From positions 6,218 through 70,217 of the IMG/VR virus record IMGVR_UViG_3300021442_000581: a stretch of DNA of 64,000 nucleotides; one strand, written 5' to 3'. Positions 4,167 through 59,025 of this stretch are shown here, piece after piece. The notes under the pieces were generated by a model, which ran no database searches, was not told the origin of the DNA, and worked only from the letters and a program-made list of their open reading frames with translations. Position 1 is the first letter of the stretch. Each line of letters starts with the position of its first letter. This DNA is from a virus. A program made the translations under genes and the position numbers.

Positions 4167-4445
4167 TTGGCTTCTACAACCCAAAACATTAACGTTACAC
4201 AAAACTCCATAATAAAATTTGCAATTGAATATTGTATGCAGTGAAGTTATGAACCAAGAGCTTTCAGTTTGAGAGATGAATTAAGTACAGCATATTCAGA
4301 ATCAGAAATAGAAATGATTGAAAGCAGCGGTGGAGTGTACAACGTATACGTTAACAATGATCAGATCTTCGATAAAATAGCATCAGATAGATTTCCAAAT
4401 GATGGAGAGATTTTAGCATTAGTCGAACGATTTAATTTTATTTAA
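4167..4445 (+). CDS. SelW/SelT/SelH (Rdx) family selenoprotein, CxxU motif (UGA at 4242-4244)
   Basis: TTG 4167 ...KFAIEYC-M-Q-(TGA)-SYEPRAFSLRDEL...IESSGGVYNVYVNNDQIFDK..SDRFPNDGEI...TAA 4445. Rdx motifs occur on both sides of the TGA; hairpin at 4261-4275. Confidence 0.88.
4261..4275 (+). promoter_or_regulatory. Candidate bacterial SECIS hairpin
   Basis: CUUUCA-GUU-UGAGAG; the apical loop G lies 23 nt after the UGA. Confidence 0.5.
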
Positions 4446-4526
4446 AAAAGTTATAAAAAAATCACATTTTGAGAATTTTACAGTATATATATTTTATAGA
4501 ATATATATTATTCTATATGTTTTTTG

Positions 4527-4979
4527 AAAATTTGGAAAATGAAAGTGTGTGAGTTGATCGCTTGCACATGGGATTGACAGAAAAAATCCTTTCCAGAAGA
4601 GGGGGTTATTGTTGAGTAAATTCACCCGTGGTGGGTTCCTAAAGGCCGAAGTGCTGGCTCAAATGTGAGTAATAGGAAAACGACAGTTTAGAATTGAAAG
4701 ATATGTCATGAACTATACGAAAAGAGCTACTTTTCTGCTTCATTCTGAGAGAGTGATAGAAATATCGAGATTCTCAGCCTAGTGTTACCTAAAAACCCGT
4801 GAGTGATGGGGAAGGTGTAATGACAGGAGTTGTGTCCACTCCAGCGAAGTTAACCACTTTAAGGAGTAACCGATCGTAACTGATTGGGTTGTTAGCATGA
4901 AGTCAAATAAAATCATTCATGACCCGTGACATTTGTAAGTGTATGCAAATCTTACATCCCCAATATATTTTCCAATTTT
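4527..4979 (+). ncRNA. Large structured noncoding RNA candidate (~450 nt)
   Basis: ORF-free; closing helix TTGGAAAAT(4532-40)/ATTTTCCAA(4967-75); long-range GTCATGAA(4705-12)/TTCATGAC(4916-23); many local hairpins; AT-rich promoter-like sequence just upstream. Confidence 0.7.
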
Positions 4980-4981
4980 AT

Positions 4982-5048
4982 AGAGATTGCCGTACTAGCG
5001 TTTTAGTCTCCACTATATAATGACTTAAAAACCTTTGCGGCAATCTTT
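4982..5048 (+). ncRNA. Long bulged hairpin (small RNA, processing signal or terminator)
   Basis: AGAGATTGCCGTA/TGCGGCAATCTTT outer stem and TTTTAGTC/GACTTAAAA inner stem. Confidence 0.55.
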
Positions 5049-5205
5049 TATACATGAAAAGCTATTATTTTCCATGAAAAACAGTTACAAGTCAACAACA
5101 AATATGAAAAAAATTATAAAAAAATTAACTTTTGAGATTGTTCAAGAATATATATTTATGTATTGAACATTAACTATTAACTAATAAAAAATAAGGAGAA
5201 ATGTT

Positions 5206-5982
5206 ATGGACATTGCCGCAATCAAAGCACGATTAGGCCAACTTCAACAATCAGCAAACAAGACTTCTTCCCTTTGGAAGCCAAGTCCTGGAAAATCTCA
5301 AATTCGAATCGTTCCGAATAAAGCAAATAAGGACAATCCGTTTATTGAGTTGTACTTTCATTATGATATGGGTGATAAATTTTATCTATCACCGATTTCG
5401 TTTGGAAGACCTGATCCAATTGAAGAGTTCGCAATTAAACTTAAAACATCCGGTAACGGGGATGATTACAAATTAGGAAGAAAAATCGAAGCCAAAATGC
5501 GTACATACGCCCCAGTAGTTGTACGTGGTGAAGAGAATGAAGGTGTAAGGTTTTGGGGTTTTGGTAAAATGGTTTACCAAGAACTTTTAAGCATCATTGC
5601 TGATCCTGATTATGGTGATATTACTGATCCCGTTAATGGTAGAGACGTTGTAGTAGAATTTAAAACCAGTGAAGAAACTGGTCGTTCTTTTCCAACGACA
5701 ACAATACGTGTTAAACCGAATCAAACACCGGTTACTGATAATCCAGATGTCATGAAGACAATTAAGGATACTCAGAAGAATATCACGGAAATCTACCAGG
5801 AGATGAGTTACGATGATCTACATAAAGTACTTTCTGAATGGTTGAATCAAGATGGAGAAGGCGAAGATGATTCAGTTAGCGCTAAAAAAGTAGCGATTCC
5901 AGCGAAGTCGACGAATGATAAGGTTAAAGAAGCTGCTACCACCGATGTGAGCAGTGCATTTGACGAATTATTCAATAACTAG
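5206..5982 (+). CDS. Single-stranded DNA-binding protein (T4 gp32-like)
   Basis: WKP..G...IRIVP, YGDITDPVNGRD, acidic tail ending AFDELFNN; strong AAGGAG RBS. Confidence 0.85.
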   Translation: MDIAAIKARLGQLQQSANKTSSLWKPSPGKSQIRIVPNKANKDNPFIELYFHYDMGDKFYLSPISFGRPDPIEEFAIKLKTSGNGDDYKLGRKIEAKMRTYAPVVVRGEENEGVRFWGFGKMVYQELLSIIADPDYGDITDPVNGRDVVVEFKTSEETGRSFPTTTIRVKPNQTPVTDNPDVMKTIKDTQKNITEIYQEMSYDDLHKVLSEWLNQDGEGEDDSVSAKKVAIPAKSTNDKVKEAATTDVSSAFDELFNN

Positions 5983-6003
5983 CACACGATAATACAACAA
6001 TAT

Positions 6004-6032
6004 AATGGGCCCGGTGGTCCGGGTCCATTTTT
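6004..6032 (+). terminator. Intrinsic terminator
   Basis: AATGGGCCCGG-TGGT-CCGGGTCCATT followed by a T run. Confidence 0.75.
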
Positions 6033-6047
6033 AGATAGGGGAAATTT

Positions 6048-7142
6048 ATGTCCAAAGACATACTGGCTTCAGAACTTGCTGATAGCCTAAATTCAAAATT
6101 CAAGGGCCAAAAGGTTGCATACTTTTTGGATGGTTCTCACGATTCACCAACAGATATTAAAGATTTTATTTCTACTGGTTCATCTATATTAGATTTAGCA
6201 ATATCAAATAAACCAAAGGGTGGAATTGCAGTTGGTAGGATTACAGAAATAAATGGATTAACTTCTACAGGTAAGTCACTCTTAGGTGCTCATATTTTAG
6301 CTGAGACGCAAAAGAGAGATGGAGTTGCAGTTTATATCGATACTGAAACATCAGTTAGTCGACAATTTTTAGAAGCAATTGGTTGTGATGTTGGAAATTT
6401 ATTATATCTTCATATTGAAACCGTAGAAGAAATATTTCAGGCGATTGAAGATATTATCTTAAAAATTAGAGAATCAAATAAAAACAAACATGTTACTATA
6501 CTTGTAGATAGTTTAGCCGCAGCTTCAACTAAAGTAGAAATGGAAGCTGATTATGAAAAAGATGGTTGGGCTACTTCTAAAGCAATTATTATTTCTAAAG
6601 CAATGCGTAAAATCACTCAAATGATAGGACGCAATAAAATTACATTGGTATTTACAAATCAACTTCGTCAAAAAATGGGAGTTATGTTTGGAGATCCTTA
6701 TACAACAAGTGGTGGTTTAGCACTGCCATTCCATTCGTCAACTAGAATTAGGTTGAAAAATATGGGACAGATAAAAGATAAGGACGGAAATACAATCGGT
6801 GTAAAGTGTAGAGCACAGGTTATAAAAAATAGAATCGGTCCTCCAATGAGAAATGCAGATTATGATATGTATTTTGATCGTGGAATTGATGATGAAGGTG
6901 GGTGGTTACAAGTTTTAAAAGATTTGGGTATAGCTACCAATAAAGGTGCTTGGTACACTATTGAGTTCAACGGTAAAGAAAAGAAATTCTTGTCTAAAGA
7001 TTTTGTAAGTCAACTTGAAGATAAAAAGTTTAAAGATTTTTTATATGAAAAGATATGTGAAAATAGCATTCTTGAATATGAAAATGAACGTGGAATTGAT
7101 GATGTTGAATTTACCGACGAAGTCATGAACGAAGATGCGTAG
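6048..7142 (+). CDS. recA: RecA/UvsX recombinase
   Basis: GRITEING.TSTGKS Walker A, YIDTE, LVDSLAA, FTNQLR, MFGDP.TTSGG. Confidence 0.93.
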   Translation: MSKDILASELADSLNSKFKGQKVAYFLDGSHDSPTDIKDFISTGSSILDLAISNKPKGGIAVGRITEINGLTSTGKSLLGAHILAETQKRDGVAVYIDTETSVSRQFLEAIGCDVGNLLYLHIETVEEIFQAIEDIILKIRESNKNKHVTILVDSLAAASTKVEMEADYEKDGWATSKAIIISKAMRKITQMIGRNKITLVFTNQLRQKMGVMFGDPYTTSGGLALPFHSSTRIRLKNMGQIKDKDGNTIGVKCRAQVIKNRIGPPMRNADYDMYFDRGIDDEGGWLQVLKDLGIATNKGAWYTIEFNGKEKKFLSKDFVSQLEDKKFKDFLYEKICENSILEYENERGIDDVEFTDEVMNEDA

Positions 7143-8151
7143 CAATTACGCACAAATTTTAGACCAACTCAAAGACAACGTATCAAAGCCACAAAGTGTT
7201 AATGATCATGTCTTAATTGTAGACGGTCTAAATAACTTCATTAGAGCTTGGTCTGCTTCCCCTGCGACTAATTCTGATGGAGTTCATATCGGTGGAATGA
7301 TAGGGTTTTTACAAAGCGTCGGCTTAGCAGTAAGAACCCTTCTTCCAACGAGAGTTATAATAGTATTTGATGGTGCAGGTGGTTCTCAAAGAAGACGTAA
7401 AATTTACAGTGAATATAAGGGAAATCGTAAACCACCAAAACGTCCTCATAGATTTCAGGGTATGGATGGAGAAAATGATGCTACAAGTATGCGCAGACAA
7501 ATTAATAGATTGGCTCAATATTTGTTATTGCTTCCAGTAAACACAATTTCAATTGAAAAGATAGAGGCTGATGATAGTATAGGTTATATTACTACTAAAT
7601 TATTACCGGATTCTAAGATTTCTATTATGTCTTCTGATAAGGATTTTTTACAACTGGTAAATGATAAGGTTTCAGTATGGTCTCCAACAAAAAAGATATT
7701 ATACGATAGAACAAGAGTAGAAGAAGAATTCGAAATGCCTCCAGAAAATATGATTTATTACAGAATAGTAGATGGTGATAAGTCAGATAATATACCAGGA
7801 ATTAGAGGATTTGCTCTTAAAACTATTTTGAAAAAAAATCCATTTTTGAAAAGTGAGAAGATAAGTAATATAGAAGAATATATACAAAGGTCAGGTTTTG
7901 ATAGTTATGAAGATTTACTACGTAGAAATTACACATTGATGCAATTGGATGATGTGAATATTTCTGGTAGTGCTAAATTAAAAATACTGGATGTAGTTAA
8001 TTTGCTCCCTCATAGGTTGATAAAATACAAGATTCATAGGTTGTTTTTAGAAGATAAAATAAATCAAGCTATTAGAAATCCTGATGTATGGTTACAAAAT
8101 ACGTTTAATAGGTTAGACATGGTTATTGAAAATGACTCCTCCAATAAGTGA
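7135..8151 (+). CDS. 5'-3' exonuclease / T4 RNase H-like flap nuclease
   Basis: LIVDGLN, VFDG, YKGNR, EADD, SSDKDFLQL, GDKSDNIPG. Confidence 0.92.
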   Translation: MRSNYAQILDQLKDNVSKPQSVNDHVLIVDGLNNFIRAWSASPATNSDGVHIGGMIGFLQSVGLAVRTLLPTRVIIVFDGAGGSQRRRKIYSEYKGNRKPPKRPHRFQGMDGENDATSMRRQINRLAQYLLLLPVNTISIEKIEADDSIGYITTKLLPDSKISIMSSDKDFLQLVNDKVSVWSPTKKILYDRTRVEEEFEMPPENMIYYRIVDGDKSDNIPGIRGFALKTILKKNPFLKSEKISNIEEYIQRSGFDSYEDLLRRNYTLMQLDDVNISGSAKLKILDVVNLLPHRLIKYKIHRLFLEDKINQAIRNPDVWLQNTFNRLDMVIENDSSNK

Positions 8152-9508
8152 TTCATTAACAAAATACGGAAGTAGTTTCCAAACTAAGATTATTACAAGT
8201 CTTTTAGTTAAGGAAGAATTTATTCAAACAATATATGATTTAATTCAACCTGAACAATTAGATACAGAAAGTAAGCAATGGTTAGTTAGAGAAATAAAGG
8301 CATATTTTTATGAGTATAAGGTTTTACCAACATTAGATTCTTTAAAGGTAAAGATTACTCCAATAACAAATGAAATATTAAAAGAATCAATTGTTGATGA
8401 ATTACGTGAGGTAATGAAATATGTTGAAGCTACTGATTTAGATTTTATTCAAAATGAAACTATACAATTCTGTAAAAATCAAGCATTAAAGAGTGCAATT
8501 GTACAGTCTGTAGACCTCCTTCAACGGGGAGAATATGACAACATCAAAAGAATTATAGACAATGCTATGAGAGCTGGTACCAGAAGGGATATAGGTTTAG
8601 AATATGTTAAGGATTTTGATACAATTATAGATCAAGTTGCTAGAGACACAGTTAGTACTGGTTTTATGGCAGTAGATGAAATAACCGATGGTGGATTGGC
8701 TGGTGGAGAACTTGGAATTGTTGTTGCTCCATCTGGTATTGGTAAGAGTTGGGTTTTACAGGCTTTAGGTGCCAATGCTTTAAGAGCTGGAATGAATGTA
8801 ATGCACTACACTTTAGAATTAAATCAAGCCTATGTTGGACTGAGATACGGTGCTATATTTTCTAAGATTGAAACTTCTATGATACCAGATAAGCGAGATA
8901 AAGTAAAGAAAATGATAGAGGACCAATGTAAGGGTGAACTATTAATAAAATATTATCCATCGAAAGCAGCTAGTGTACAGACTATTTATACACATTTAAA
9001 AACCGTTGAATTAATGGGTCATTCCCCAGATATAATTTTGTTAGATTATGCTGATTTGTTAACTGATACATCAGGAATTGGAGAGTTACGACATCAATTG
9101 GGAAACATATATGAAGAATTACGTGGACTAAGTGGTGAGTTTGGAATTCCAGTATGGACGGCATCTCAATCAAATAGGTCAAGTTTGGAAGAAAACGTTA
9201 TTGGTGCAGAAAAAATTGCAGAATCGTACAGTAAGGTCATGACGGCTGACTTTGTAATGAGTTTATCTCGAAAAATTGAAGATAAGGTTGCTAATACTGG
9301 ACGTATACACATAATTAAGAACAGGTTCGGACCGGATGGATTAACTTTTCCCACTACTATGAATACAGCCATCGGTCAAATAGAAGTGTATGAATCGGGA
9401 ACCTCCAGTGGAATGACCGTCCAAAACAGGATGGATAATGGAAACGAATATGTCAGAAAATTGCTTAAAAAGCGCTACGATGAATTTGAAACTCAGCAAT
9501 CGGATTAA
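8132..9508 (+). CDS. DnaB-like replicative helicase (gp41-like)
   Basis: APSGIGKS Walker A, YTLEL, LDYADL, WTASQSNR, KNRFG. Confidence 0.92.
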   Translation: MTPPISDSLTKYGSSFQTKIITSLLVKEEFIQTIYDLIQPEQLDTESKQWLVREIKAYFYEYKVLPTLDSLKVKITPITNEILKESIVDELREVMKYVEATDLDFIQNETIQFCKNQALKSAIVQSVDLLQRGEYDNIKRIIDNAMRAGTRRDIGLEYVKDFDTIIDQVARDTVSTGFMAVDEITDGGLAGGELGIVVAPSGIGKSWVLQALGANALRAGMNVMHYTLELNQAYVGLRYGAIFSKIETSMIPDKRDKVKKMIEDQCKGELLIKYYPSKAASVQTIYTHLKTVELMGHSPDIILLDYADLLTDTSGIGELRHQLGNIYEELRGLSGEFGIPVWTASQSNRSSLEENVIGAEKIAESYSKVMTADFVMSLSRKIEDKVANTGRIHIIKNRFGPDGLTFPTTMNTAIGQIEVYESGTSSGMTVQNRMDNGNEYVRKLLKKRYDEFETQQSD

Positions 9509-9523: not shown

Positions 9524-11497
9524 ATGGCCGAGCCATTTGTTTTATCAGAAGGATTTATAAAGAAATATAAATTAAAAAAACCACCATTTGGGTTTAATGG
9601 TCTTGGGGAATTAGTTTATATGCGAACATATTCTAGAATTAAAAAAGACGGTAAAAATGAAATGTGGTGGGAAACTGTCCGAAGAGTTGTAGAAGGCACA
9701 TATACCATGCAAAAAAATCATATTGATAGTTATCAGCTTGGATGGAATCCATGGCAAGCGCAGAGATCAGCTCAAGAAATGTATGATAGAATGTTTAATA
9801 TGAAGTTCTTACCACCTGGTCGTGGATTGTGGGCGATGGGTACTTCTATTACATCTGAAAGAGGTTTATACGCTGCATTAAATAATTGTGCATTTGTTTC
9901 AACTGCTACTATAAAGGATGATTACGCAAAACCATTTACTTTTTTAATGGACGCAAGCATGTTGGGTGTAGGAGTTGGTTTTGATACAAAGGGTGCAGAT
10001 CAAATTTTAGTTAAAGGTCCAAATAAAGATAGGACCGATGATGAATACATAATACCAGATACTAGAGAGGGCTGGGTTGAATCATTAAGATTATTGATGG
10101 AGAGTTACTTTCATGCGACTGCTCCTATGGAATTTGATTATTCAAAAATTAGATCAGAAGGCGAACCAATAAGGGGTTTTGGTGGAGTTTCAAGCGGTCC
10201 TGAGCCGCTTATAGAATTACATGAAACAGTTAGAAAGGTTTTAGATTCACAATTAGGTGAACCAATTTCAGTTACAACAATCGTAGATGTAATGAATCTC
10301 ATTGGTAAATGCGTAGTAGCGGGAAATGTTCGTAGAACTGCTGAAATAGTTTTTGGTGACCCGAACTCAGATGAATATTTAGATTTAAAAAATTATGATG
10401 TCAATCCACACAGGGAACAATATGGTTGGACTTCAAATAATTCAGTATATGCAGAATTAGGTATGGATTATACGGAAACGTGTGCACGTATTATAAAAAA
10501 TGGAGAACCTGGATTTGCATGGTTAAAAAATATGAAAAAGTATTCTCGTATGAAAAATGGCGGAGATAACAAAGATCATAGAGCATCTGGTGGAAATCCA
10601 TGTTTAGAACAAACGTTAGAATCGTATGAGTTATGTTGTCTTGTAGAAACATTTCCAAACAATCATGATTCATTAGATGATTATAAACGGACATTAAAAT
10701 ATGCATATTTATATGCCAAAACAGTAACACTTGGTAAAACTCATTGGTCAGAAACAAATAGAGTTATGTTAAGAAATAGACGAATTGGATGTTCAGTAAG
10801 TGGTGTTGCACAATTTATTACCAACAGAGGATTAGATACACTAAAGAGGTGGCTAAATAAAGGATATGACGTAATACAGGAGTGGGATTGTATGTATTCA
10901 GATTGGTTTGCAATTCCTAAATCAATAAAAACTACTTCAGTAAAACCTTCAGGTACAGTTTCATTATTAGCAGGAGCGACTCCAGGATTACATTACCCTG
11001 AGAGTCGTTTTTATATTAGACGGGTACGGTTGGCTAAAAATTCAGATTTATTAGAACCATTGAAAAAAGCAAATTATAATATTGAACCAGCTTTTGGATC
11101 TGAAAGATCGACGGTTGTTGTTGAAGTACCCATAGATTGTGGAGATGGTATAAGAACGGCTCCAGAATTAACAGTATGGGAACAATTCAGTTTAGCCGCG
11201 TTTTTACAACGACATTGGGCAGATAACCAAGTAAGTTGTACTGTAACGTTTGATCCAGAAACAGAAGGAAATCAATTACCAGCTGTGTTAAATTATTTTC
11301 AATATCATTTAAAGGGTATAAGCATGCTTCCAAGGTTAGATACTGGAGCATATAAACAAATGCCTTATGAATCAATTGATGAAAAAACATATAAGAAAAT
11401 GTTATTAAAATTAAAAAAATTAAGTTTTCGAAAGGTTAAAGGAAACGAAGCCATTGTTGAACGATTTTGCGATGGTGATGTTTGCGAGGTCTTATAA
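9524..11497 (+). CDS. nrdJ: Class II adenosylcobalamin-dependent ribonucleotide reductase (monomeric RTPR type)
   Basis: PPGRGLW, LNNCAF, GNVRRTA, GGNPCLEQ, VKPSGTVS, C-terminal CDGDVC; no beta subunit nearby. Confidence 0.9.
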   Translation: MAEPFVLSEGFIKKYKLKKPPFGFNGLGELVYMRTYSRIKKDGKNEMWWETVRRVVEGTYTMQKNHIDSYQLGWNPWQAQRSAQEMYDRMFNMKFLPPGRGLWAMGTSITSERGLYAALNNCAFVSTATIKDDYAKPFTFLMDASMLGVGVGFDTKGADQILVKGPNKDRTDDEYIIPDTREGWVESLRLLMESYFHATAPMEFDYSKIRSEGEPIRGFGGVSSGPEPLIELHETVRKVLDSQLGEPISVTTIVDVMNLIGKCVVAGNVRRTAEIVFGDPNSDEYLDLKNYDVNPHREQYGWTSNNSVYAELGMDYTETCARIIKNGEPGFAWLKNMKKYSRMKNGGDNKDHRASGGNPCLEQTLESYELCCLVETFPNNHDSLDDYKRTLKYAYLYAKTVTLGKTHWSETNRVMLRNRRIGCSVSGVAQFITNRGLDTLKRWLNKGYDVIQEWDCMYSDWFAIPKSIKTTSVKPSGTVSLLAGATPGLHYPESRFYIRRVRLAKNSDLLEPLKKANYNIEPAFGSERSTVVVEVPIDCGDGIRTAPELTVWEQFSLAAFLQRHWADNQVSCTVTFDPETEGNQLPAVLNYFQYHLKGISMLPRLDTGAYKQMPYESIDEKTYKKMLLKLKKLSFRKVKGNEAIVERFCDGDVCEVL

Positions 11498-11518
11498 TAA
11501 AATTCACATACAAAGCGG

Positions 11519-11557
11519 ACAGGCAGTTGACGCACCTGTGGAAAAATGCGTCTTAAC
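11519..11557 (+). promoter_or_regulatory. H-type pseudoknot in the leader of the TonB-dependent receptor
   Basis: P1 ACAGG(11519-23)/CCTGT(11535-39); P2 GACGCA(11529-34)/TGCGTC(11547-52); A-rich loop GGAAAAA. Confidence 0.6.
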
Positions 11558-11591
11558 TTCGTTAACGAACGGAAAAAGAAGGAGAACGTTT

Positions 11592-14321
11592 ATGAAACGT
11601 AATCTAATAGTATCACTTATGATGATGACTGGATTGTTTGCTCAATCTGTTGTTGGAGTTGTAACTGATGCGAACTCAAATCCATTGGCTGGAGCAAACG
11701 TAGTAGTCGAGGGTACAGATAACGGTGGTGTAACCGATGTAGATGGAAAATACACCATTGATGTAGGTGCTTCTGGCGACTACGATTTAACTGCTTCATT
11801 CATTGGATATTCAACAGTAACTAATGCAGTTACCGTTGATGACATAGTTGGAACAGTTAATTTCCTGTTGGAAATTGACGCTGTTTCAATGTCAGCATTG
11901 GAAGTCTTGGCTTCTAGGGCTGACGAAAATACACCGGTTGCATATACTACCGTGGGTAAAGAGGAAATGGAAATGAGACTAGGTTCTCAAGACATTCCAA
12001 TGTCTCTTAATATGACACCTAGTGTCTATGCTACTCAACAAGGTGGTGGTGCGGGCGATGCTCGTATAAATGTGAGAGGTTTTAATCAGCGAAATGTTGC
12101 GGTTATGATCAACGGTGTTCCACAAAATGATATGGAAAATGGTTGGGTTTACTGGTCTAATTGGGATGGAGTTGCAGACGCAGCGCATTCAATTCAGATG
12201 CAAAGAGGTTTGTCTGCAGTAAATTTAGCTACCCCTTCCATTGGTGGAACTATGAACATCTTAACCGATCCTGCATCCCATGATAAGGGAGGCAAGTTCA
12301 AACAAGAAGCTGGTGAAGGTGGTTTTTTAAAGACTACCCTTAATTACAACTCTGGTCTTATTGATGATAAGTTAGCTATAAGCGGAACAATCGTACGTAA
12401 GACTGGTGATGGGATTGTTGATGGTACTTGGACAGATGCGTGGGCATATTACTTAGGTAGTAGCTACCAGATGAACGAAGATCATCGACTAGAACTGTAC
12501 GCGATAGGTGCACCACAACGACATGGTCACAACCTATACAAACAGAATATTGCTACTTATTCTCAAGAGTTAGCTGGAAGTATCGATGGATATGATGCTA
12601 CCGCTTTCGCAGAAGGTGAGAAATTCGAGCATGAAGCTGGTAGGTTGTTCAACCAAAACGTGGCACCAGTCGATGCATCATATAGTGGACAACAGTATTA
12701 CTATATGTACGGTGCAAAGACTGTTGATAGGCACGATCCAAATTCTCTAAATGAAAGAGAGAATTTTTTCCATAAGCCTTTAGTCAACTTAAACCATTTT
12801 TGGTCGATAAGTGATGACGCAAGGTTAAGTTCAGTAGCATATTGGAGCGGTGGTTCCGGTGGTGGTACAGGAACTTATGGTAGCGTAAGTAGATTCCCTG
12901 CGGTAGAAGACAATGCTTGGTACGCAAGCTCTCCGTGGACTTGGGACTGGAATGGCGAAATTGCTCAAAACTCAGCAAACGTTGATTCAGCTTGGTCTGA
13001 TACAGAGAACAGGTCAACAGGCATACTTCGTAACAGTATCAATCGTCAGAATACTTACGGCTTGATTTCTAAACTAAGTTACGATGTTAGTGACGAGTTA
13101 GAAATCCAAGTGGGTATTGACTGGAGAGCTGCCGGTATAGAACACGCACGTGAAGTCCGTGATCTACTCGGTGGTGATTACTATGTAGACTATGCTGATG
13201 ATAACTTTGAAGACGGTAAAGTTGTTAAGTTAGGTGATGAGATCGCCTATCATAATGAGACTACTGTTGATTGGTTTGGTACATTTGCACAGGGTAAGTA
13301 CACGACTGATAAGTTTAATGTATATGGTATGGGCGGTTTGTCCACAATCAAATACTCTTATCAGGATCACTTCACTGTTGCAGATGAGAAGATCGAAGCA
13401 GATGCTATTACAACTTTTCAATTGAAAGGTGGAGGGGTGTATAACCTCGACGATAGAATGTCAGCATTCGTAAATGCTGGATACGTTCAGAAACCGCCTA
13501 TCATGGATAATGTAATCTACTACGATGGAACAGTTTCATCAGATCCAGACAATGAGAAGTATCAAAGCTTCGAATTTGGTGGTAAGTACAATAGCGACAA
13601 AGTTAATGTCAAGCTAAGTTCATATAATACTAAGTGGATTGACAGAAACATTGTTAAAAATGTATCTACCGGACAAGGTGATAGTGGTGATACTGATCTT
13701 ATCTTCCTGCGTGGTGTTAAACAAGATCACAGCGGTTGGGAAGTTGAAGGTAAAGTAGCACTTCATGACATGGTTGATCTAGATCTTGTACTCAGTAAAG
13801 GCAAATGGGAATTTGTTGATGATGCAGAAGGTTCATACGAAGAGCAAGAGTTTAATGAAAACGGTGAAGTCATTGGTATGATGTCAACCGATTACGCATA
13901 CGCTCTTAAGGGACTTATGGTTGGTGATATGCCACAAACAGCTTATGCTGGTGGTTTAACAGTAAAGCCAATGGCAGGTCTAGAGATACAAGGACTATAC
14001 AGAATGTATGATGACAATTATGCAGATTGGAGTCCTGATTCACGTGAGATCGATGGTGATGCAGATAGAGATCAAGTTTGGAAAGCTCCAGGGTACGGAA
14101 GATTAGATCTTCATGCCTCATACAGGCTTCCAAAAATTGCTGGTCTTGATATGACAATATCAGCACATGTTTTCAATGCATTGGATGAAGTATATGTTCA
14201 GGATGCAGTTGATAACAGTCAGTACAATGGGTTTGGTGATAAAATGCACCTAGCTCATAACGCGGAAGTATTTCTTGGGACACCAAGATACGCTAACGTA
14301 GGAATTTCAGTTAACTTTTAG
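11592..14321 (+). CDS. TonB-dependent outer-membrane receptor with N-terminal carboxypeptidase-regulatory-like domain
   Basis: Likely start ATG 11592 after AAGGAG; signal peptide; GVVTD..PLAGANVVV.GT..G..TD.DG.Y; plug INVRGF..RN.AVMINGVP; ends in F. Confidence 0.92.
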   Translation: MKRNLIVSLMMMTGLFAQSVVGVVTDANSNPLAGANVVVEGTDNGGVTDVDGKYTIDVGASGDYDLTASFIGYSTVTNAVTVDDIVGTVNFLLEIDAVSMSALEVLASRADENTPVAYTTVGKEEMEMRLGSQDIPMSLNMTPSVYATQQGGGAGDARINVRGFNQRNVAVMINGVPQNDMENGWVYWSNWDGVADAAHSIQMQRGLSAVNLATPSIGGTMNILTDPASHDKGGKFKQEAGEGGFLKTTLNYNSGLIDDKLAISGTIVRKTGDGIVDGTWTDAWAYYLGSSYQMNEDHRLELYAIGAPQRHGHNLYKQNIATYSQELAGSIDGYDATAFAEGEKFEHEAGRLFNQNVAPVDASYSGQQYYYMYGAKTVDRHDPNSLNERENFFHKPLVNLNHFWSISDDARLSSVAYWSGGSGGGTGTYGSVSRFPAVEDNAWYASSPWTWDWNGEIAQNSANVDSAWSDTENRSTGILRNSINRQNTYGLISKLSYDVSDELEIQVGIDWRAAGIEHAREVRDLLGGDYYVDYADDNFEDGKVVKLGDEIAYHNETTVDWFGTFAQGKYTTDKFNVYGMGGLSTIKYSYQDHFTVADEKIEADAITTFQLKGGGVYNLDDRMSAFVNAGYVQKPPIMDNVIYYDGTVSSDPDNEKYQSFEFGGKYNSDKVNVKLSSYNTKWIDRNIVKNVSTGQGDSGDTDLIFLRGVKQDHSGWEVEGKVALHDMVDLDLVLSKGKWEFVDDAEGSYEEQEFNENGEVIGMMSTDYAYALKGLMVGDMPQTAYAGGLTVKPMAGLEIQGLYRMYDDNYADWSPDSREIDGDADRDQVWKAPGYGRLDLHASYRLPKIAGLDMTISAHVFNALDEVYVQDAVDNSQYNGFGDKMHLAHNAEVFLGTPRYANVGISVNF

Positions 14322-14330: not shown

Positions 14331-14403
14331 GGGGCTGTAGCTCATTTGGGAGAGCGCCGCACTTGCACTGCGGAGGTAGTAGGTTCGATCCCTATCAGCT
14401 CCA
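14331..14403 (+). tRNA. tRNA-Ala(UGC)
   Basis: GGGGCTG/CAGCTCC acceptor with G3:U70; anticodon arm CCGCA-CTTGCAC-TGCGG; GTTCGATCC. Confidence 0.95.
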
Positions 14404-14408
14404 CTATT

Positions 14409-14480
14409 GACCCCGTCGTCTAGTGGTTAGGACATCAGGTTTTCATCCTGGGAACAGCAGTTCGATTCTGCTCGGGGTTA
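14409..14480 (+). tRNA. tRNA-Glu(UUC)
   Basis: GACCCCG/CGGGGTT acceptor; TCAGG-TTTTCAT-CCTGG; GTTCGATTC. Confidence 0.93.
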
Positions 14481-14509
14481 CAAAAAAAGTTATAAAAAGT
14501 GAAAAAAAG

Positions 14510-40416: not shown

Positions 40417-40938
40417 ATGGCTAAGAAAGCAGCATCATTTGAGTATAATGGTACATTAATCAAAGTATTAGATGGTGATACAATTGATTGTTGGATCGAT
40501 TTAGGATTTGATCTAAAAATTAAAAAAAGAATTAGATATATGGGTATTGATACTTGGGAATCACGTACTAAAAACCTAGATGAAAAGAAATTGGGTCTAG
40601 CAGCGAAAGCACGAAACAAAGAGTTGTTAGAGGGTGGAGTTTTTAAGATAGTTTCTCATGGTACTGGAAAATTTGGCCGAGTTTTAGGAGAGATTTTCGT
40701 ACAGGAAGAAGCCGTAGGTGATTCAGTACCTGAGGGTGTAGACAGAAGCGCAGATGGATTAGTTAGTATTAATGACATATTAATGGCAGAAGGTCATGCT
40801 TACGAATATCATGGTGAAAAGAAGAAAGATTTTAAAGCAGAAGTACTAGCAGAGAAAAAAGCAGCGTTAAGTGCAGTGTACACTCCAGCAGTCGATCAAC
40901 CCGATTATGAGGATAAACAGGTATTGTATAAATCATAG
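40417..40938 (+). CDS. Thermonuclease (SNase-like) protein
   Basis: KVLDGDTID, RIR..GIDT.ESRT, GKFGRVLG, IND.L..EGHA. Confidence 0.85.
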   Translation: MAKKAASFEYNGTLIKVLDGDTIDCWIDLGFDLKIKKRIRYMGIDTWESRTKNLDEKKLGLAAKARNKELLEGGVFKIVSHGTGKFGRVLGEIFVQEEAVGDSVPEGVDRSADGLVSINDILMAEGHAYEYHGEKKKDFKAEVLAEKKAALSAVYTPAVDQPDYEDKQVLYKS

Positions 40939-42221: not shown

Positions 42222-42392
42222 ATGAACCAACATTGGCAAAAATATGCAGAAGAATTTGAAGACTTAGAAGAACGTGAAATAAGAAAAGCGTATAAAAATA
42301 GGCCTGGTAAAAAATTAGATCATAAACAAGAAAAGAAACTAAAGGAGAGAAAGAAAAATGAAGTTCAATATCCTAAAAAATCTAAGCGTTAG
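42222..42392 (+). CDS. Small charged hypothetical protein (56 aa)
   Basis: AGGAG RBS; MNQHWQKYAEEFEDL...KSKR*; below the ORF-track cutoff. Confidence 0.55.
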   Translation: MNQHWQKYAEEFEDLEEREIRKAYKNRPGKKLDHKQEKKLKERKKNEVQYPKKSKR

Positions 42393-42873
42393 TGCGATAT
42401 TACTGCTTACAATCGGTTGTGAGAAAGAACAACCATACGAACCGGTTGATGATTTACATGGAACAGTATATGTTACAGTTGAATATGTAGATGAGATCGT
42501 ATTAAACACTAATTCGTGGCAGACTCTAAAAACTATTTGGGGAATATTAGAGTCTGACATGGATGTATCGTATGTAAGGGTTGAGTGGAGCTCTAACATG
42601 TTTTGGGTTATAGGTGATACTACTGGTTATTTTAAGACTGACTGTAGAACGTGCAATACCGGTACTTGGTATGATACTGATGGAACTACTGAGTACATGA
42701 GTTACGATTTTAATTCTATGTCACCAGTTACAAATCAAATATCTATTGCAGATAATTTGGGGCAATTCGGAAATGTATTGGCTCCAGTTCGATCGATGAA
42801 AGGGGATGTTATGACGCTTTGGTGGAACATTGGAACTTCATATATTGATTCAATGGAGGTAGCATTAAATTGA
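42358..42873 (+). CDS. Putative lipoprotein
   Basis: Signal peptide with lipobox-like LTIG-C. Confidence 0.65.
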   Translation: MKFNILKNLSVSAILLLTIGCEKEQPYEPVDDLHGTVYVTVEYVDEIVLNTNSWQTLKTIWGILESDMDVSYVRVEWSSNMFWVIGDTTGYFKTDCRTCNTGTWYDTDGTTEYMSYDFNSMSPVTNQISIADNLGQFGNVLAPVRSMKGDVMTLWWNIGTSYIDSMEVALN

Positions 42874-43133
42874 CATTTGTATTAATAGACAAGCAAGGTA
42901 ATATAGTTGATCGGTATAATACATCAACAAAAGATGAAGCTAAGCATTATTTTGTAGGAAGAAAACAATTAGAGGAAAAAGCATTTGACAAGCTTTGGAA
43001 TGTAATATCCGATGAAGAACACGAATCAAGAGTGAGAAGTGGATTATACAAAAAATTAAAAGGTGAACCCAACCGGTACAATAAACTTGGTGATGGGGAA
43101 TTTGGAGACTGGTTAGATATGGAGAAATCATAA
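42870..43133 (+). CDS. Hypothetical protein
   Basis: TTG start after GGAGG; coupled to neighbours. Confidence 0.6.
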   Translation: MTFVLIDKQGNIVDRYNTSTKDEAKHYFVGRKQLEEKAFDKLWNVISDEEHESRVRSGLYKKLKGEPNRYNKLGDGEFGDWLDMEKS

Positions 43134-49413: not shown

Positions 49414-49532
49414 AATGATTCGAAAACTTATCACTTGGTTCAAATTGAAATTACCAAAAAGAAAAGTTTTTCATCATGCGATAAGTAAAATGCCATATTA
49501 TGGTGAATTTATCGGAGAATAGTGAAAATAAA

Positions 49533-49565
49533 CATGTACATTAACCGGTTTTTGTTTGTATATTC
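49533..49565 (+). promoter_or_regulatory. Phage promoter CATGTAC-N19-TATATTC (copy 3)
   Basis: CATGTACATTAACCGGTTTTTGTTTGTATATTC. Confidence 0.75.
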
Positions 49566-49607
49566 TACTATAACAATTAACTAATAAATAATAAACTTGA
49601 GGTTACT

Positions 49608-49700
49608 ATGACAACAATACTTTATATCTTAACAATCATCGCTTATCTGTGGATAGGCATAAAAGATCCTGCTGGATTAATGCCAAAGGCGGTAAAATAA
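49608..49700 (+). CDS. 30-aa single-TM micropeptide
   Basis: GAGG RBS; MTTILYILTIIAYLWIGIKDPAGLMPKAVK*; stop overlaps the next ATG. Confidence 0.55.
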   Translation: MTTILYILTIIAYLWIGIKDPAGLMPKAVK

Positions 49701-50044: not shown

Positions 50045-50117
50045 GTACCGGTACCCGAGTGGCTAAGGGGACGGATTGCAACCCCGTTATTCGTCAGTTC
50101 GATTCTGACCCGGTACT
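50045..50117 (+). tRNA. tRNA-Cys(GCA)
   Basis: GTACCGG/CCGGTAC acceptor, U73 discriminator, loop TTGCAAC, GTTCGATTC. Confidence 0.9.
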
Positions 50118-50121
50118 CAAT

Positions 50122-50201
50122 GAGTGCGTAGCCCGATTTGGAAAGGGGGCGGACTGTAAATCCGTTTAACCATCAAGTAGGTTCGAATCCTACCGCACTC
50201 A
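50122..50201 (+). tRNA. tRNA-Tyr(GUA)
   Basis: GAGTGCG/CGCACTC acceptor; GCGGA-CTGTAAA-TCCGT; 11-nt variable region; GTTCGAATCC. Confidence 0.9.
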
Positions 50202-50202
50202 C

Positions 50203-52345: not shown

Positions 52346-52370
52346 AAAAAAGTGAAAAAAAGTGAAAATA
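52341..52370 (+). repeat. Three tandem 10-nt units AGTGAAAAAA (last unit AGTGAAAATA)
   Basis: Seen directly upstream of promoter copy 4. Confidence 0.8.
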
Positions 52371-52372
52371 AA

Positions 52373-52405
52373 CATGTACAAGTACCGGTTTTTTGTCGTA
52401 TATTC
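52373..52405 (+). promoter_or_regulatory. Phage promoter CATGTAC-N19-TATATTC (copy 4)
   Basis: CATGTACAAGTACCGGTTTTTTGTCGTATATTC. Confidence 0.78.
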
Positions 52406-52451
52406 TATTATAACAAATGATTAATAAATAAGCAATTCATAAAAGGTTAAA

Positions 52452-54898: not shown

Positions 54899-54907
54899 GG
54901 AGTCACA

Positions 54908-55708
54908 ATGTACGGTGCAATTAGTTATACACCACCAAAGTGGACGGAGAAAGTTCATTTCGGTTATACGATGGCAAGATGTTCAGAAATTGCCTATTTA
55001 GATAATACAGAAGCAAAAAAAGAGTATAAACGATTAGGGTTTACTGCTCATAGATTTTTTGATGAGGATGGAGCACAGTGTCACTGTACGTGGAACGATG
55101 AATGGTTTGTTATCGCATTTAGAGGAACACAAGGTAAAGAGTGGAGTGATATTAAAGCAGATCTTAGTGTTGATTCAGTTGATGCTAAGGGATTTGTTGG
55201 TCGCGTGCAGACTGGATTTCAACATGAGTTGGATAAGCTAATACCAAAATTGTTTAAATTTATAATGAAGAAGTATGATCAGAACCGCAAGATCGTATAC
55301 ACCGGTCATTCTTTAGGTGCTGCGATGGCCACACTTGCGGCATCTAGAGCTGAGACACATGTTGATAGTTTATTTACGTACGGTTCACCACGAGTTGGTA
55401 ATGAAAAATTTGTAAGTAGTTTGTCTTATTTACCCCATTTTAGATTTGTAAACAATGCTGATACCGTTACAAAGGTACCATTCAGACATTGGGGATACCG
55501 TCACCATGGAGAGTTGAGATATATAGATGCTAAGGGTGATGTTGATGCTAAATCACATGTGTGGTCTAGATTTTGGGATAGAATTATTGGAAGATTGGAT
55601 GGAATATTAAATAGGAATTATTTTGATGGTGTTTCTGATCATTCATGTTCGAATTATTGTGAGCACTTACAAAAGTATGAGGAAGAGTATATTAAAGGAG
55701 AAGTATGA
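54908..55708 (+). CDS. Lipase class 3 (alpha/beta hydrolase)
   Basis: IAFRGT, TGHSLGAAMA, TYGSPRVG, RFVN..D.V..VP, DH. Confidence 0.9.
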   Translation: MYGAISYTPPKWTEKVHFGYTMARCSEIAYLDNTEAKKEYKRLGFTAHRFFDEDGAQCHCTWNDEWFVIAFRGTQGKEWSDIKADLSVDSVDAKGFVGRVQTGFQHELDKLIPKLFKFIMKKYDQNRKIVYTGHSLGAAMATLAASRAETHVDSLFTYGSPRVGNEKFVSSLSYLPHFRFVNNADTVTKVPFRHWGYRHHGELRYIDAKGDVDAKSHVWSRFWDRIIGRLDGILNRNYFDGVSDHSCSNYCEHLQKYEEEYIKGEV

Positions 55709-55893
55709 TGCCGAAAGCAAAGAAAAAAGCCGGATTTAAGGTTAACGAATCGGATATTAGAATTTCAGCGAAGAGAACATCTATAAGACGAGAGACTGCT
55801 GATAGAAGAAGGAATAGCAATCCTGGTGATGTCTTTTGGGCAAAGGTCATTAATGGTTTTGAGAATTTCTTAAAATCACCATGGAGCAAATGA
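55705..55893 (+). CDS. Hypothetical basic protein
   Basis: 62 aa, coupled. Confidence 0.55.
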   Translation: MMPKAKKKAGFKVNESDIRISAKRTSIRRETADRRRNSNPGDVFWAKVINGFENFLKSPWSK

Positions 55894-56159
55894 TGGCAAT
55901 TAAAATAGTAGCAGAGAGAGTACCACCTGGAGACAGATGGGTACTTACAGATGAAGTGATCCAACCGCATGATGAACAGGTTGTGTTAACGTCTCTAACT
56001 GATTGTCTGAACGAGATATTTAAGACTACGGGTGATAGAGTTTTTACAGTCGATGCAGGTAAAGGGAATGTTTCTGTTGAAGAGGAACGAACACGAGGAC
56101 CAAGAGTGTGGGACTTATACGGTGAAAAATCAGACGACAAAGAAATACTCAGCGGTTGA
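55881..56159 (+). CDS. Hypothetical phage protein
   Basis: IVAERVPPGDRW...SLTDCL motif. Confidence 0.65.
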   Translation: MEQMMAIKIVAERVPPGDRWVLTDEVIQPHDEQVVLTSLTDCLNEIFKTTGDRVFTVDAGKGNVSVEEERTRGPRVWDLYGEKSDDKEILSG

Positions 56160-56303
56160 TAAACCAATGTACGTGTTTTCTCTACCCGTATTTGAAGACA
56201 AAGAAGTTATTGAAGATAGAGATTGGAGAATCTTAGAAGAGTGGGTTATAATGATGTACGAAGATAGATTTGATTTAACAATGTTAATGTTAGCGAGGGC
56301 ATA

Positions 56304-56549
56304 ATGAAACATGAAGACTATAGGAAACTGATGAGGACACCTTTCGACGAGTTGTCAGCAGAAGACCAAGAGAAACGAACTAATGAATTTCTTAGACGAA
56401 TGGAATTAGCATCATCGTTTTTATCACAACTTAAAGATGGTAAAATCCATGATGAGTTTGTAGATTTGATAGAAGATGATGATCCGATGAAGGAAATGAT
56501 AGAAGTAGTAAAAATAAAAGCAAATGATAATATAGGAGCAGAAGCATGA
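56304..56549 (+). CDS. Hypothetical protein
   Basis: 81 aa, coupled. Confidence 0.55.
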   Translation: MKHEDYRKLMRTPFDELSAEDQEKRTNEFLRRMELASSFLSQLKDGKIHDEFVDLIEDDDPMKEMIEVVKIKANDNIGAEA

Positions 56550-56746
56550 ATTTGACTTGGTTTTATTTACATGTAGTATTAGCAACAATAATACTATATA
56601 AAGATTACGATGGTACTCTTGAAGAGTCATTAGATAAATTCGAACAGTCGATAGGGTTGTATACACCACCAGATACTATCGATGCAACACCACCGTATTA
56701 CATACCACCAATTAGTGAGGAAGATGAAAATGCAGAACGAAGTTAA
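56546..56746 (+). CDS. Small membrane-anchored protein
   Basis: N-terminal hydrophobic helix. Confidence 0.5.
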   Translation: MNLTWFYLHVVLATIILYKDYDGTLEESLDKFEQSIGLYTPPDTIDATPPYYIPPISEEDENAERS

Positions 56747-56951
56747 TGTGAATCAACAACAGTTAGATCCAAGTAAGATGTCTGTTGTTAAGTGCAAAGA
56801 ATGTGATCATGATTTGTGGGAACAAAAATTTGAGATACGTAGAGCATCACCTATTACATCACCTACTGGACAGGAAATGTTTGTACAGATTCCTATGATG
56901 GTGTGTAGCAGTTGTGATGTACGGTATCCAGTTAAAGGTGATTTATCGTGA
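56730..56951 (+). CDS. Zinc-ribbon protein
   Basis: CKEC...SPTGQE...CSSC. Confidence 0.65.
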   Translation: MQNEVNVNQQQLDPSKMSVVKCKECDHDLWEQKFEIRRASPITSPTGQEMFVQIPMMVCSSCDVRYPVKGDLS

Positions 56952-58144
56952 AATATTCTCCCGAGTACTATGAAAAAATAGAACAGTATAAACGTGCTCA
57001 TACGGAGGGCATGTACACTCGAGGTAGTAGGGACCCAGCCGATAAAATTCCACGAAGAGTAGTTGCACCCGATATAACGATGGAAGGTGTAGGAATAATG
57101 CGGAATGCTAGCTATTTTGCTAACACTACTGTTATTACTCGCATGTTAGGTGGTGAAAGATTTATTAACAGTGTACTAGATTACGGTAGTGGAAAGCCAG
57201 TTCCACTTACGTTTACACCAGGTAAAGCTGGAGAGTATGACCCTTCACGAGCAGCTTCTGAGGGTAAGAAGACTCGAGACGATAAACATGTACAAGATTT
57301 TTTATATCCACAAAACCAACAGGATTTTATAGAGTATATCGGTGTTGGTAATAATTTCTATCAGTGGGATCCAGCAATACCAGGAATAGATGATCCTCTT
57401 CCACCAGGTGCACAGTGGGATCAAGTGTGGTGTTCGGATGTTCTAGAACATATACCAGAACAAGATGTGGATGCAGTACTTGATGATTTATTTGCTCGAG
57501 CTCGTATATCATTAGTGATATTGATTAGTGCTAGTCCAGGAAAGCAGATGTTTAGGGATGATGATTACGAATTCGACTATCAGGGAATGAGGGAAGAAGG
57601 GGAAGATTTATACAATATTCAACACGTTCCTGAATCGGATAGACAATCACTAAAAGCTGGTGATGATCTTCATTGTACGGTACGGGATGCTAAATGGTGG
57701 ATAGATAAGATAAATAAACAAGCAAGGGCAAGGAATTGGCAAGATGCAGACGGAAAGTTTTTAAGATGTTCTATTAAAACTGGTCCTGATCAAAAGGGAA
57801 CGACTTCAGTTCGAGAGACTAGATGGTTTGGAAAGAATCCTAAAGGACTAACACCGGATACTATGCCAGTGATACAGCGGCAAGGTCAGTGGTGGGAAGA
57901 TTTTGATAGGATACTGATTGAAAAGAAAGTATATGAGATGGCACGGTTTCCAACGTATCGATATGAACAGTGGCCGAAAACTCCTCCGAAAAGGGGTCAC
58001 GGCAATATGATATACTGGAAAAAGACTGATATGAAAAATCATCAAGCTGGTAAGGCAGCACAGCATAAACCCGGTTCTTGGGAATCATCACGAATAGATA
58101 AACCATCGAATAGAAAGAGGAATGCAGACGGTACAATAAAATGA
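56948..58144 (+). CDS. Class I SAM-dependent methyltransferase-like protein
   Basis: VLDYGSGK, WDPAIP, CSDVLEHIPE.D. Confidence 0.75.
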   Translation: MKYSPEYYEKIEQYKRAHTEGMYTRGSRDPADKIPRRVVAPDITMEGVGIMRNASYFANTTVITRMLGGERFINSVLDYGSGKPVPLTFTPGKAGEYDPSRAASEGKKTRDDKHVQDFLYPQNQQDFIEYIGVGNNFYQWDPAIPGIDDPLPPGAQWDQVWCSDVLEHIPEQDVDAVLDDLFARARISLVILISASPGKQMFRDDDYEFDYQGMREEGEDLYNIQHVPESDRQSLKAGDDLHCTVRDAKWWIDKINKQARARNWQDADGKFLRCSIKTGPDQKGTTSVRETRWFGKNPKGLTPDTMPVIQRQGQWWEDFDRILIEKKVYEMARFPTYRYEQWPKTPPKRGHGNMIYWKKTDMKNHQAGKAAQHKPGSWESSRIDKPSNRKRNADGTIK

Positions 58145-59025
58145 GATTTGCATTGAAAATACTAAAGTACTTTTTAATATCATTCTTTGTTCTATCAGCA
58201 GTAAGAGGACAGTATGCGGTAGGAGATACGATAGATAATTTCAGTTTGGAGATTTGTGAGAATGGAGAAGGTACATGGGAGTATCATCAAGATGGTGTAG
58301 GTAATGTTGTATGGATGAATCTCTTCACGTCATGGTGACCAAGCTGTCAAGCGGAGGCTCCGTTGTCTGAAAATATGTGGCAAAATTATCAAGACCTACC
58401 GGTAGTAGTAATGGGTGTAGGTAGTGATTGGAGTACTTACTCTTGTGAAGGATGGGTTAATGCATTTGGAATAACATATCCAATGTTAGATGATTACGCT
58501 TCAACGGTTTATTGGTTATTCGGTGATGGGTATATTCCGCATAACGTTATACTAGATCATCAAGGTGTTGTACTGTATTCACAATCAGGATTTAATTCAA
58601 GTGCTATTATAAGTGTCATTAACAGTGCATTAGATAATATAGATGCCGATAATGATGGTGTTTATAATGGTAATGATAACTGTCCAGATGATTACAATCC
58701 AGAACAAGAAGACGAGGACGGTGATAGTATCGGTGATGCGTGTGATCCATGTAATAGTTTAGTATTTACCGGTGGAGATTTAAATACCAATCTAACACTT
58801 GATATAGCTGACGTCTTACTGTTGGTCAATATACTAATAGACGGTGAAGGACCACAGTGTCAAGTAGAATCAGCTGATATGAATGCTGATGGATTAATAA
58901 ATGTTTTAGACGTTATAACAATGGTTCAACTAATATTGAACGGTACTGAGGAACAAGCATTGAGATATTTGGAAGAGAATTTTGATTACATCCCAATGAC
59001 AACGATCGAGTACGAACAACGATGA
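58141..59025 (+). CDS. Exported thioredoxin-fold (AhpC/TlpA-like) selenoprotein, UxxC, with TSP3 repeats and dockerin-like domain (UGA at 58336-58338)
   Basis: ORFs 58141-58338 and 58363-59025 are in the same frame; reads WMNLFTSW-(TGA)-PSCQAEAP; then ITYPMLDD, YIPHNVILD..G; DADNDG...DNCP..YNPEQ.D.DGD.IGDACD; GDLN......IAD...ADMNADG.INVLDV. Confidence 0.9.
58348..58365 (+). promoter_or_regulatory. Candidate bacterial SECIS hairpin
   Basis: CAA(G)CGGA-GGC-UCCGUUG; the apical G lies 18 nt after the UGA. Confidence 0.6.

Follow-up and report, generated by a model that had tools for sequence, protein, structure and literature searches.

Does a marine bacteriophage encode selenoproteins of its own and leave the decoding of their selenocysteine (Sec) codons to its host? 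The question is raised by a stretch of 64,000 nucleotides, positions 6218–70217 of the 70,217-base IMG/VR virus record IMGVR_UViG_3300021442_000581 (G000), which is referred to as the window in the following and to which all coordinates refer unless another record is named. Two genes in it, an Rdx/SelW-like gene (gene A, 4167..4445) and a ResA/TlpA-like gene (gene B, 58141..59025), both on the + strand, each read through one in-frame TGA codon. A first-pass annotation of this DNA had placed each TGA at a redox cysteine position with a hairpin after it, and the coordinates, the motifs and the Pfam matches obtained here agree with that placement. As described below, both UGA codons are very probably Sec codons accompanied by bacterial-type Sec insertion sequence (SECIS) hairpins, and the comparison of phage sequences with those of the host lineage makes it likely that the products are phage selenoproteins decoded by host machinery.

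Two redox genes with an in-frame TGA

The product of gene A is a protein of 92 residues with the motif C-M-Q-U (CxxU) near its N-terminus, where U is encoded by the TGA at 4242..4244 (+ strand), and this motif is kept in all eight gene-A loci. The protein matches the Pfam family Rdx (PF10262) over residues 19–87 with 66.5 bits (cut-off 22.6; E = 2.5e-18). When a profile of gene A and its relatives was compared with the PDB, the SelW-related bacterial proteins 2fa8, 3dex and 2p0g were the closest, with E values of 1e-15 to 2e-10; the U aligns with the second Cys of the CxxC motif in these solved relatives, C-M-Q-U corresponding to C-t-q-C of 2fa8. The start codon is taken to be a TTG that abuts the upstream TAA, the sole canonical start upstream of the motif and hence an uncertain one, and both this TTG and an N-terminal extension of 18 residues are missing from the cellular and the other phage copies. 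A single-sequence scan of viral contigs returned no relatives of gene A, which were found by a profile scan. The 760 nt downstream of the gene (4446–5205) are free of long open reading frames (ORFs); within them, a partial manA RNA motif (RF01745) is matched at 4787–4955 (+ strand) with 40.4 bits, under the gathering score of 55.2 (E = 7.9e-09).

Gene B encodes 294 residues, with the sequence F-T-S-W-U-P-S-C around the TGA at 58336..58338 (+ strand). A predicted signal peptide of 24 residues (58141..58212, + strand), read from the translation by its basic start, its hydrophobic core and VRG/Q, is followed by a thioredoxin-fold domain of the AhpC-TSA/Redoxin type (residues 27–146; 58219..58578, + strand) and by a TSP3 repeat region with a dockerin type I module (58642..58929, + strand), both identified with Pfam. 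The redox domain scores 40.8 bits with AhpC-TSA (PF00578, cut-off 26) and 39.3 bits with Redoxin (PF08534, cut-off 26.6), Dockerin_1 is above its cut-off at residues 212–263 and TSP_3 is below its cut-off at residues 168–189. The best solved relative of the gene-B profile in the PDB is ResA (4nmu, E = 8.9e-15), in which W-C-K-P-C aligns with W-U-P-S-C, so that U takes the place of the first, nucleophilic Cys. A scan of GTDB species genomes with gene B returned, among the 80 matches listed, two full-length relatives; the TSP3 repeats dominate this result, and the scan is no measure of the spread of the family across phyla.

The earlier description of the pair as unrelated thioredoxin-fold genes is a fair one. 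As for the compartments that had been assigned to the products, a signal peptide, typical in form, is predicted only at the N-terminus of gene B, which agrees with a cytoplasmic product of gene A and an exported product of gene B, although both locations are read from sequence alone. The sorting tail for the type IX secretion system (T9SS) that is found in the cellular homologues of gene B is missing from the copy in the window; among the phage copies, four of seven keep the tail and three, that of the window included, end in a short unrelated sequence. Because the tail has been lost in the window phage, its gene B product is probably periplasmic rather than located at the cell surface. The ATG of gene B shares the sequence ATGA with the stop codon of the upstream ORF (56948–58144, 398 aa), an overlap that suggests translational coupling of the two. 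The upstream ORF itself matches no Pfam family at E <= 1e-4, and motifs like those of a class I S-adenosylmethionine methyltransferase were recognized in it by eye only.

Conservation of the TGA codons

In gene B, the codon is TGA at each of 12 loci, namely the window, L004, the loci L005 and L006 of metagenome-assembled genomes (MAGs) and the viral loci L105–L112. Since L105 represents the phage of the window, L106 equals L004 and L110 equals L109 over the hairpin, these loci amount to nine different sequences in the 45-nt alignment. All of 13 further copies, from 12 loci in genomes of the Marinimicrobia phylum (locus L122 being the same place as L006), have TGA at this codon as well. Gene A has TGA in eight of eight loci (L114 and L115 are identical there), as well as in a divergent copy in the viral record G410. 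Phage copies with protein identities of just 43–70% to those of the window are among these. Neither TAA or TAG at these positions nor any frameshift was seen in the relatives, and every relative whose DNA was read has TGA; a chance nonsense mutation, which the first-pass annotation had called unlikely, is excluded by this conservation.

Both flanks of the gene B TGA are under purifying selection, with dN/dS values of 0.12–0.47 upstream and 0.17–0.56 downstream in eight comparisons (dS was not computable for one of those downstream). Sec/Cys pairs are found for both genes: in gene B, the aligned codon is TGT or TGC in five of five lower-scoring, stop-free homologues from the same phylum, and in gene A, the Cys partner is provided by the solved Cys-type relatives described above. 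TGA is the stop codon of 25 of the 72 + strand ORFs of at least 90 aa in the window, gene B itself being among them; as no suppressor tRNA was found in eight viral records either, there is no global recoding of TGA. In public protein sets (P0006–P0015 and P0125–P0132), members of both families start just after the UGA or show Trp at the site, and the window's own entry starts with M-Q-W. Both families are thus mis-annotated in bulk in these sets; Trp appears at the UGA because short contigs were called under a code in which TGA means Trp, and it is no evidence for Trp.

The first-pass annotation had suggested a search for further UGA codons aligned with Cys and for tRNA-Sec. In the eight viral records, 899 TGA sites that have open flanks were screened all against all. 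Gene B was the sole credible conserved Sec site in this screen, gene A being outside its reach because its upstream flank is too short. The other matches in the screen were rejected as alternative or antisense frames of conserved genes. A third candidate UGA gene, at 42756–43133, was also rejected, as its upstream part is an alternative frame of the ORF at 42358–42873 and it contains no redox motif.

Hairpins downstream of the UGA codons

The consensus of bacterial SECIS elements is a hairpin just downstream of the UGA, with a G early in the apical loop. The SECIS-like hairpin of gene A (4261..4275, + strand) has a 6-bp stem that starts 16 nt after the UGA and the loop GUU (4267–4269), and that of gene B (58350..58364, + strand) has a 6-bp stem that starts 11 nt after the UGA and the loop GGC (58356–58358), together with a weaker, poorly paired lower stem (58344–58369, + strand). 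In position and in the early G of the loop, both are taken by us to match this consensus. Because the fold energies of the single sequences are not significant, the hairpins count only through their comparison among relatives.

For gene A, 94.4% of cells are paired over six different sequences, compared with 25–56% in controls with slid partners. Both sides have changed at three of the six pairs, the loop is GUU or GUC, and neither the observed pairing nor the covariation score was reached by any of 500 shuffles. The compensatory changes run through non-synonymous codons (F/S/A paired with R/E/A) and would be hard to explain by a constraint on the protein. For gene B, changes on both sides occur at two pairs, and the core CGGAGGCTCCG (codons GAG-GCT-CCG) is invariant in all nine sequences of the alignment and likewise in all 13 further copies. 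In the AT-rich window, GAG, GCT and CCG account for just 25%, 40% and 17% of their own codon families. The Cys homologues that keep E-A-P (two of two) use GAA-GCC-CCA and GAA-GCA-CCT and contain no such hairpin, so that the constraint on the core of gene B tracks the TGA, as that on a SECIS element would.

Sec machinery in the phage records and in the probable host lineage

Eight viral records (G000, G001, G002 and G408–G412; 532 kb in all, 19–70% complete according to CheckV) were examined for Sec machinery; the overlap of G000 and G001 leaves seven distinct phages among them, and all of the records carry gene B with TGA. The four tRNAs of the window are encoded as the pairs Ala(TGC) and Glu(TTC) at 14331–14481 and Cys(GCA) and Tyr(GTA) at 50045–50202, and no tRNA-Sec was found in it. 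The 81-nt tRNA-Tyr has a sub-threshold score of 38.6 bits with the tRNA-Sec model, and nothing exceeded the cut-off of this model in the eight viral records, in which the 11 tRNAs identified by aragorn are all ordinary, with neither a tRNA-Sec nor a UCA anticodon among them. Family models of selA, selB and selD matched none of the three records G000–G002, and tblastn with the SelA, SelB and SelD sequences of one MAG gave no match at E <= 1 in the eight viral records. The absence of selA, selB, selD and tRNA-Sec from the window, as reported in the first-pass annotation, was thus reproduced and, for the three sel genes, extends to the whole record.

The situation is different in the cellular lineage to which the best matches point. 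Two MAGs, G003 (Candidatus Marinimicrobia) and G004 (Fidelibacterota), carry close homologues of both genes with TGA at the same codons. In both MAGs, selA and an adjoining selB, as well as selD, are above the cut-off, and a tRNA-Sec is found in one of the two, G004, with 63.9 bits. Of 201 genomes sampled from the Marinimicrobia/Fidelibacterota phylum, 143 have a selB that exceeds the curated cut-off. The selD genes of G003 and G004 (L095 and L096) are selenoprotein genes too, each with one TGA, in the context G-S-G-U-A-C-K, and with a strong hairpin (GGUCC-loop-GGACC) after the UGA.

In the Marinimicrobia phylum, 152 of 201 genomes have a match to the profile of the gene-B redox domain at E <= 1e-10, the best score being 233.6 bits, and among the matches of at least 190 bits listed there, 14 of 15 contain exactly one TGA. 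In a control set of 201 Bacteroidota genomes, the best match to this profile scored 74.4 bits and TGA was present in none of the matches listed. A second host-like gene, encoding a SusC-type TonB-dependent receptor (CarboxypepD_reg and Plug; 11454..14321, + strand), shows 60–68% identity over its full length to 36 matches in the Marinimicrobia phylum, in which 114 of 201 genomes match at E <= 1e-60, whereas its identity to Bacteroidota proteins is at most 51%. Marinimicrobia (SAR406, Fidelibacterota) is, from these matches, the probable donor of the genes and the probable host of the phage. Metagenomes abound in this receptor: 6678 proteins match it at E <= 0.001, with identities of 75–100% among the 120 matches listed.

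The phage and its genome

The record G000 is classed as a linear fragment by IMG/VR, with a CheckV completeness of 19%, and nearly all ORFs of at least 90 aa are located on the + strand of the window. Family searches identified a gp32-type single-stranded DNA-binding protein, a UvsX/RecA recombinase, a 5'-3' exonuclease and a DnaB helicase, as well as a class II ribonucleotide reductase (RNR), a family B DNA polymerase and glycosyltransferases. The best matches to the polymerase among 50,697 phage records are the polymerases of T4-like cyanophages, with an identity of only about 26%, and the window phage has no close cultured relative. The record G001 (53 kb, from another metagenome) matches positions 55141–62022 of the window with 99.8% identity over 6882 nt, the gene B region included, and reaches about 43 kb past the end of G000, so that the two records together span about 113 kb. 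A baseplate wedge protein is among the products of G001. The element is thus a tailed phage with a genome of more than 110 kb, and the best explanation of its gene content is that the window belongs to a large uncultured marine myovirus that is distantly T4-like. At least 14 marine DNA sequencing runs from many studies contain the gene B stretch.

The GC content rises from about 0.33 to 0.42–0.48 after about 59 kb (approximately 59000–64000), in a region where a CobS/MoxR-like AAA ATPase (phrog_249) is encoded; this rise is true sequence and not an assembly join, because G001 matches across the junction with 99.8% identity. An element of about 75–90 nt occurs in three copies with about 82% identity (49522–49614, 52362–52435 and 60109–60201), the third of which lies directly upstream of the ORF at 60195–61352, and may serve as a common promoter or regulatory signal. 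Beyond the window, a tmRNA was called by aragorn at G001:33478–33885 (L131:13478–13885), with the tag peptide DTDSAPLVGAELAYQPTYAYA; it may be a false call.

Proposed decoding by the host and alternative explanations

The explanation that we favour is that the phage acquired from its host lineage two separate redox genes, which were already selenoprotein genes there, and kept them as such. We infer that during infection the host ribosome would arrive at the UGA, that host SelB with Sec-tRNA(Sec) would bind the hairpin 11–16 nt downstream and that Sec would then be inserted, the tRNA having been charged via host SelA and SelD; the share of the phage would be the mRNA signal only, which matches that of the genes of the host lineage. 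Gene A would give rise to a small cytoplasmic CxxU oxidoreductase of the Rdx/SelW-like type and gene B to an exported WUxxC thiol-disulfide oxidoreductase with calcium-binding TSP3 and dockerin modules, and the phage may benefit in that the thiol redox chemistry of both the cytoplasm and the envelope would be maintained during infection. A wider proposition, namely that a lineage of large marine T4-like Marinimicrobia phages keeps a small selenoproteome of its own, which recurs as a pair in several genomes and is decoded only by the host, that this is a first for a bacterial virus and that both the fitness of these phages and the redox remodelling that they drive in an abundant ocean bacterium depend on the supply of selenium, is in our judgement evenly balanced.

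Several points weigh against this explanation. Sec insertion is inferred from comparison, by which the borrowing of host Sec decoding that had been claimed in the first-pass annotation is well supported, from phage fragments without the machinery and a probable host lineage with it. The loci from the viral profile scans were partly retrieved by a pattern that permits only TGN at the Sec position, a second pattern in each scan skipping this codon. Folded as single sequences, the two hairpins are no better than shuffles (z of 0.67 and 0.11), and that of gene A is weak by itself (-3.9 kcal/mol); the whole helix of gene B is 80.8% paired compared with 77.9% in shuffles (18/500), its lower stem being unreliable. 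Gene A has no ATG start and relies on the TTG directly behind the upstream stop. All of the phage records are fragments, and a phage tRNA-Sec or selB may be located elsewhere in the genome. On the host side, the tRNA-Sec is not above the cut-off in the MAG G003, which may be incomplete. The host call is one of homology and draws on two host-like genes. RNA-library contigs from two studies match parts of gene B without difference, and one of them (58189–58426) spans the UGA; these contigs may be DNA carry-over and are a hint only, as contigs do not show the level of expression, and no meaning attaches to the parts of the gene that they leave uncovered.

The first-pass annotation had gone further in treating the two genes as one selenium-redox module, with selenium-conditional expression and truncation at the UGA acting as a switch. 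The pair does occur together in three of the seven distinct phage fragments (G000/G001, G410 and G412), in G000 and G410 in the same order and about 53–54 kb apart, and truncation as such can be expected, since any selenoprotein is truncated when Sec-tRNA is lacking. However, the same holds for every selenoprotein, nothing sets the present case apart from ordinary selenoprotein behaviour, and the truncated products would be stubs of 25 aa and 65 aa without recognisable function. The genes, 54 kb apart in the window, are not adjacent and have no predicted common compartment, and their neighbours differ in related phages: gene B adjoins the RNR gene in L109 and L110, whereas gene A adjoins a homologue of the window ORF at 40417–40938 in L113, L116 and L117. 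Besides G000, G410 and G412, four other viral contigs carry gene A, three of 7–13 kb and one, L117, of 60 kb. In the viral profile scans, which leave out the window's own record and were made before the divergent gene A of G410 was found, five contigs with gene A and eight with gene B were listed, and only G412 was shared by both lists. Because the genes are far apart and their neighbours differ between related phages, independent acquisition of host genes is indicated instead of an operon-like module, and the module was not borne out; a single switched system appears improbable. The recurrence of the pair and its similar spacing are worth noting, and given fragments that are 19–70% complete they are neither to be dismissed nor to be built upon.

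It is more improbable still that the UGA is read as Cys or Trp, either by a phage suppressor tRNA from the unrecovered part of the genome or by a Sec-like host tRNA that carries Cys. Part of the phage genome is missing, phages with recoded stops are known (PMC9523058) and public gene callers show W at both sites, the contigs having been called under the TGA=Trp code, whereas TGA is a normal stop in the window, even for gene B itself, no UCA tRNA was found in 532 kb and a Trp at the nucleophilic position of CxxC would kill the enzyme. In addition, the conserved hairpin, which is common to cellular genes of genomes with selB, is what decoding by SelB requires, and a plain suppressor would need none. 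If the TGA codons were true stops, the genes would be decaying pseudogenes or split ORFs that are passively carried, and indeed an ORF list made under translation table 11 splits gene B into 58141–58338 and 58363–59025, and the downstream part of gene A has a TTG start of its own. The stop would, however, have had to fall exactly at the catalytic codon in all of more than 30 phage and cellular copies, with dN/dS below 1 on both sides, without frameshifts or extra stops and with an N-terminal stub that has no fold, which makes true stops highly unlikely. The least probable explanation, to which we give almost no weight, is that the record is cellular DNA, either a fragment of a Marinimicrobia genome or a chimeric assembly; three host-like genes, the step in GC at about 59 kb (0.33 before it, 0.45 after it) and the linear-fragment class could be taken in its favour, but phage replication genes lie between the two selenoprotein genes, the large ORFs are all on one strand, the overlapping record encodes the baseplate wedge protein, the GC junction recurs in an independent assembly and eight viral records have gene B plus other genes of the window.

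Implications and comparison with known systems

If genes A and B are translated as selenoproteins, the host Sec pathway must remain active in infection and serve phage messages. Selenium would then join the trace elements that are able to shape marine phage–host dynamics. The genes may also serve as a sequence-based handle on the host of an uncultured phage group, which would be restricted to Sec-using bacteria, most probably SAR406/Marinimicrobia; few viruses are known for this lineage according to passages of PMC4611503. An annotation artefact has been exposed as well, in that public sets cut both genes at the UGA or show Trp.

In a survey of ocean metagenomes (PMC9402790), the SelW-like family ranks first in abundance among the selenoprotein families (11.3%), and passages of the same survey describe the families examined, with the exception of RNR II and two cuproproteins, as having no or very few viral sequences. 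Gene A belongs to the same family as the marine bacterial SelW-like selenoproteins (PF10262) and likewise has a CxxU centre and a hairpin right after the UGA; it differs in being encoded by a phage and in its 18-residue N-terminal extension and TTG start. Gene B shares the thioredoxin fold, the W-C/U-x-x-C centre and a predicted signal peptide with oxidoreductases of the ResA/TlpA/CcmG type, including the Trx-like and Prx-like selenoproteins of ocean metagenomes, and Sec-containing homologues of it are common in Marinimicrobia. It differs from these oxidoreductases in having Sec in place of the nucleophilic Cys, in its C-terminal TSP3 and dockerin modules and in the lack of the T9SS tail of the cellular forms, and it is not known to be linked to cytochrome c maturation.

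Two poxvirus proteins are named as the sole proven virus-encoded selenoproteins in the relevant passages of a 2019 review (PMC6769590). These proteins, the GPX1-like MC066L of molluscum contagiosum virus and a GPX4-like protein of fowlpox virus, are a parallel in kind, since there too a host gene was captured with its insertion signal and the Sec machinery of the host is used. However, they are glutathione peroxidases of eukaryotic viruses with eukaryotic SECIS elements and have been proven experimentally, whereas the phage genes belong to a bacterial virus and to two other families, carry their hairpins inside the coding sequence beside the UGA and are known from sequence. No bacteriophage-encoded selenoprotein was found to be described in the full-text literature searched, from which the phrase 'phage selenoprotein' is absent, subscription journals and the supplements of PMC9402790 lying outside this search.

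In conclusion, genes A and B can be placed among the auxiliary genes of marine phages, such as thioredoxins, glutaredoxins and class II RNR, which are likewise host-derived, are located at variable positions among core genes and are under purifying selection; both genes lie in a bona fide phage genome, and their closest cellular homologues are found in one lineage (Marinimicrobia, as opposed to the Bacteroidota control). Both selenoprotein families are known already, and it is nothing unusual for phages to capture host genes. The novelty lies in the combination, in that a phage lineage without Sec machinery has retained bacterial-type Sec genes as such: ordinary auxiliary genes have no need of the SelA, SelB, SelD and tRNA-Sec of the host, whereas genes A and B, if decoded as proposed here, would depend on all four.

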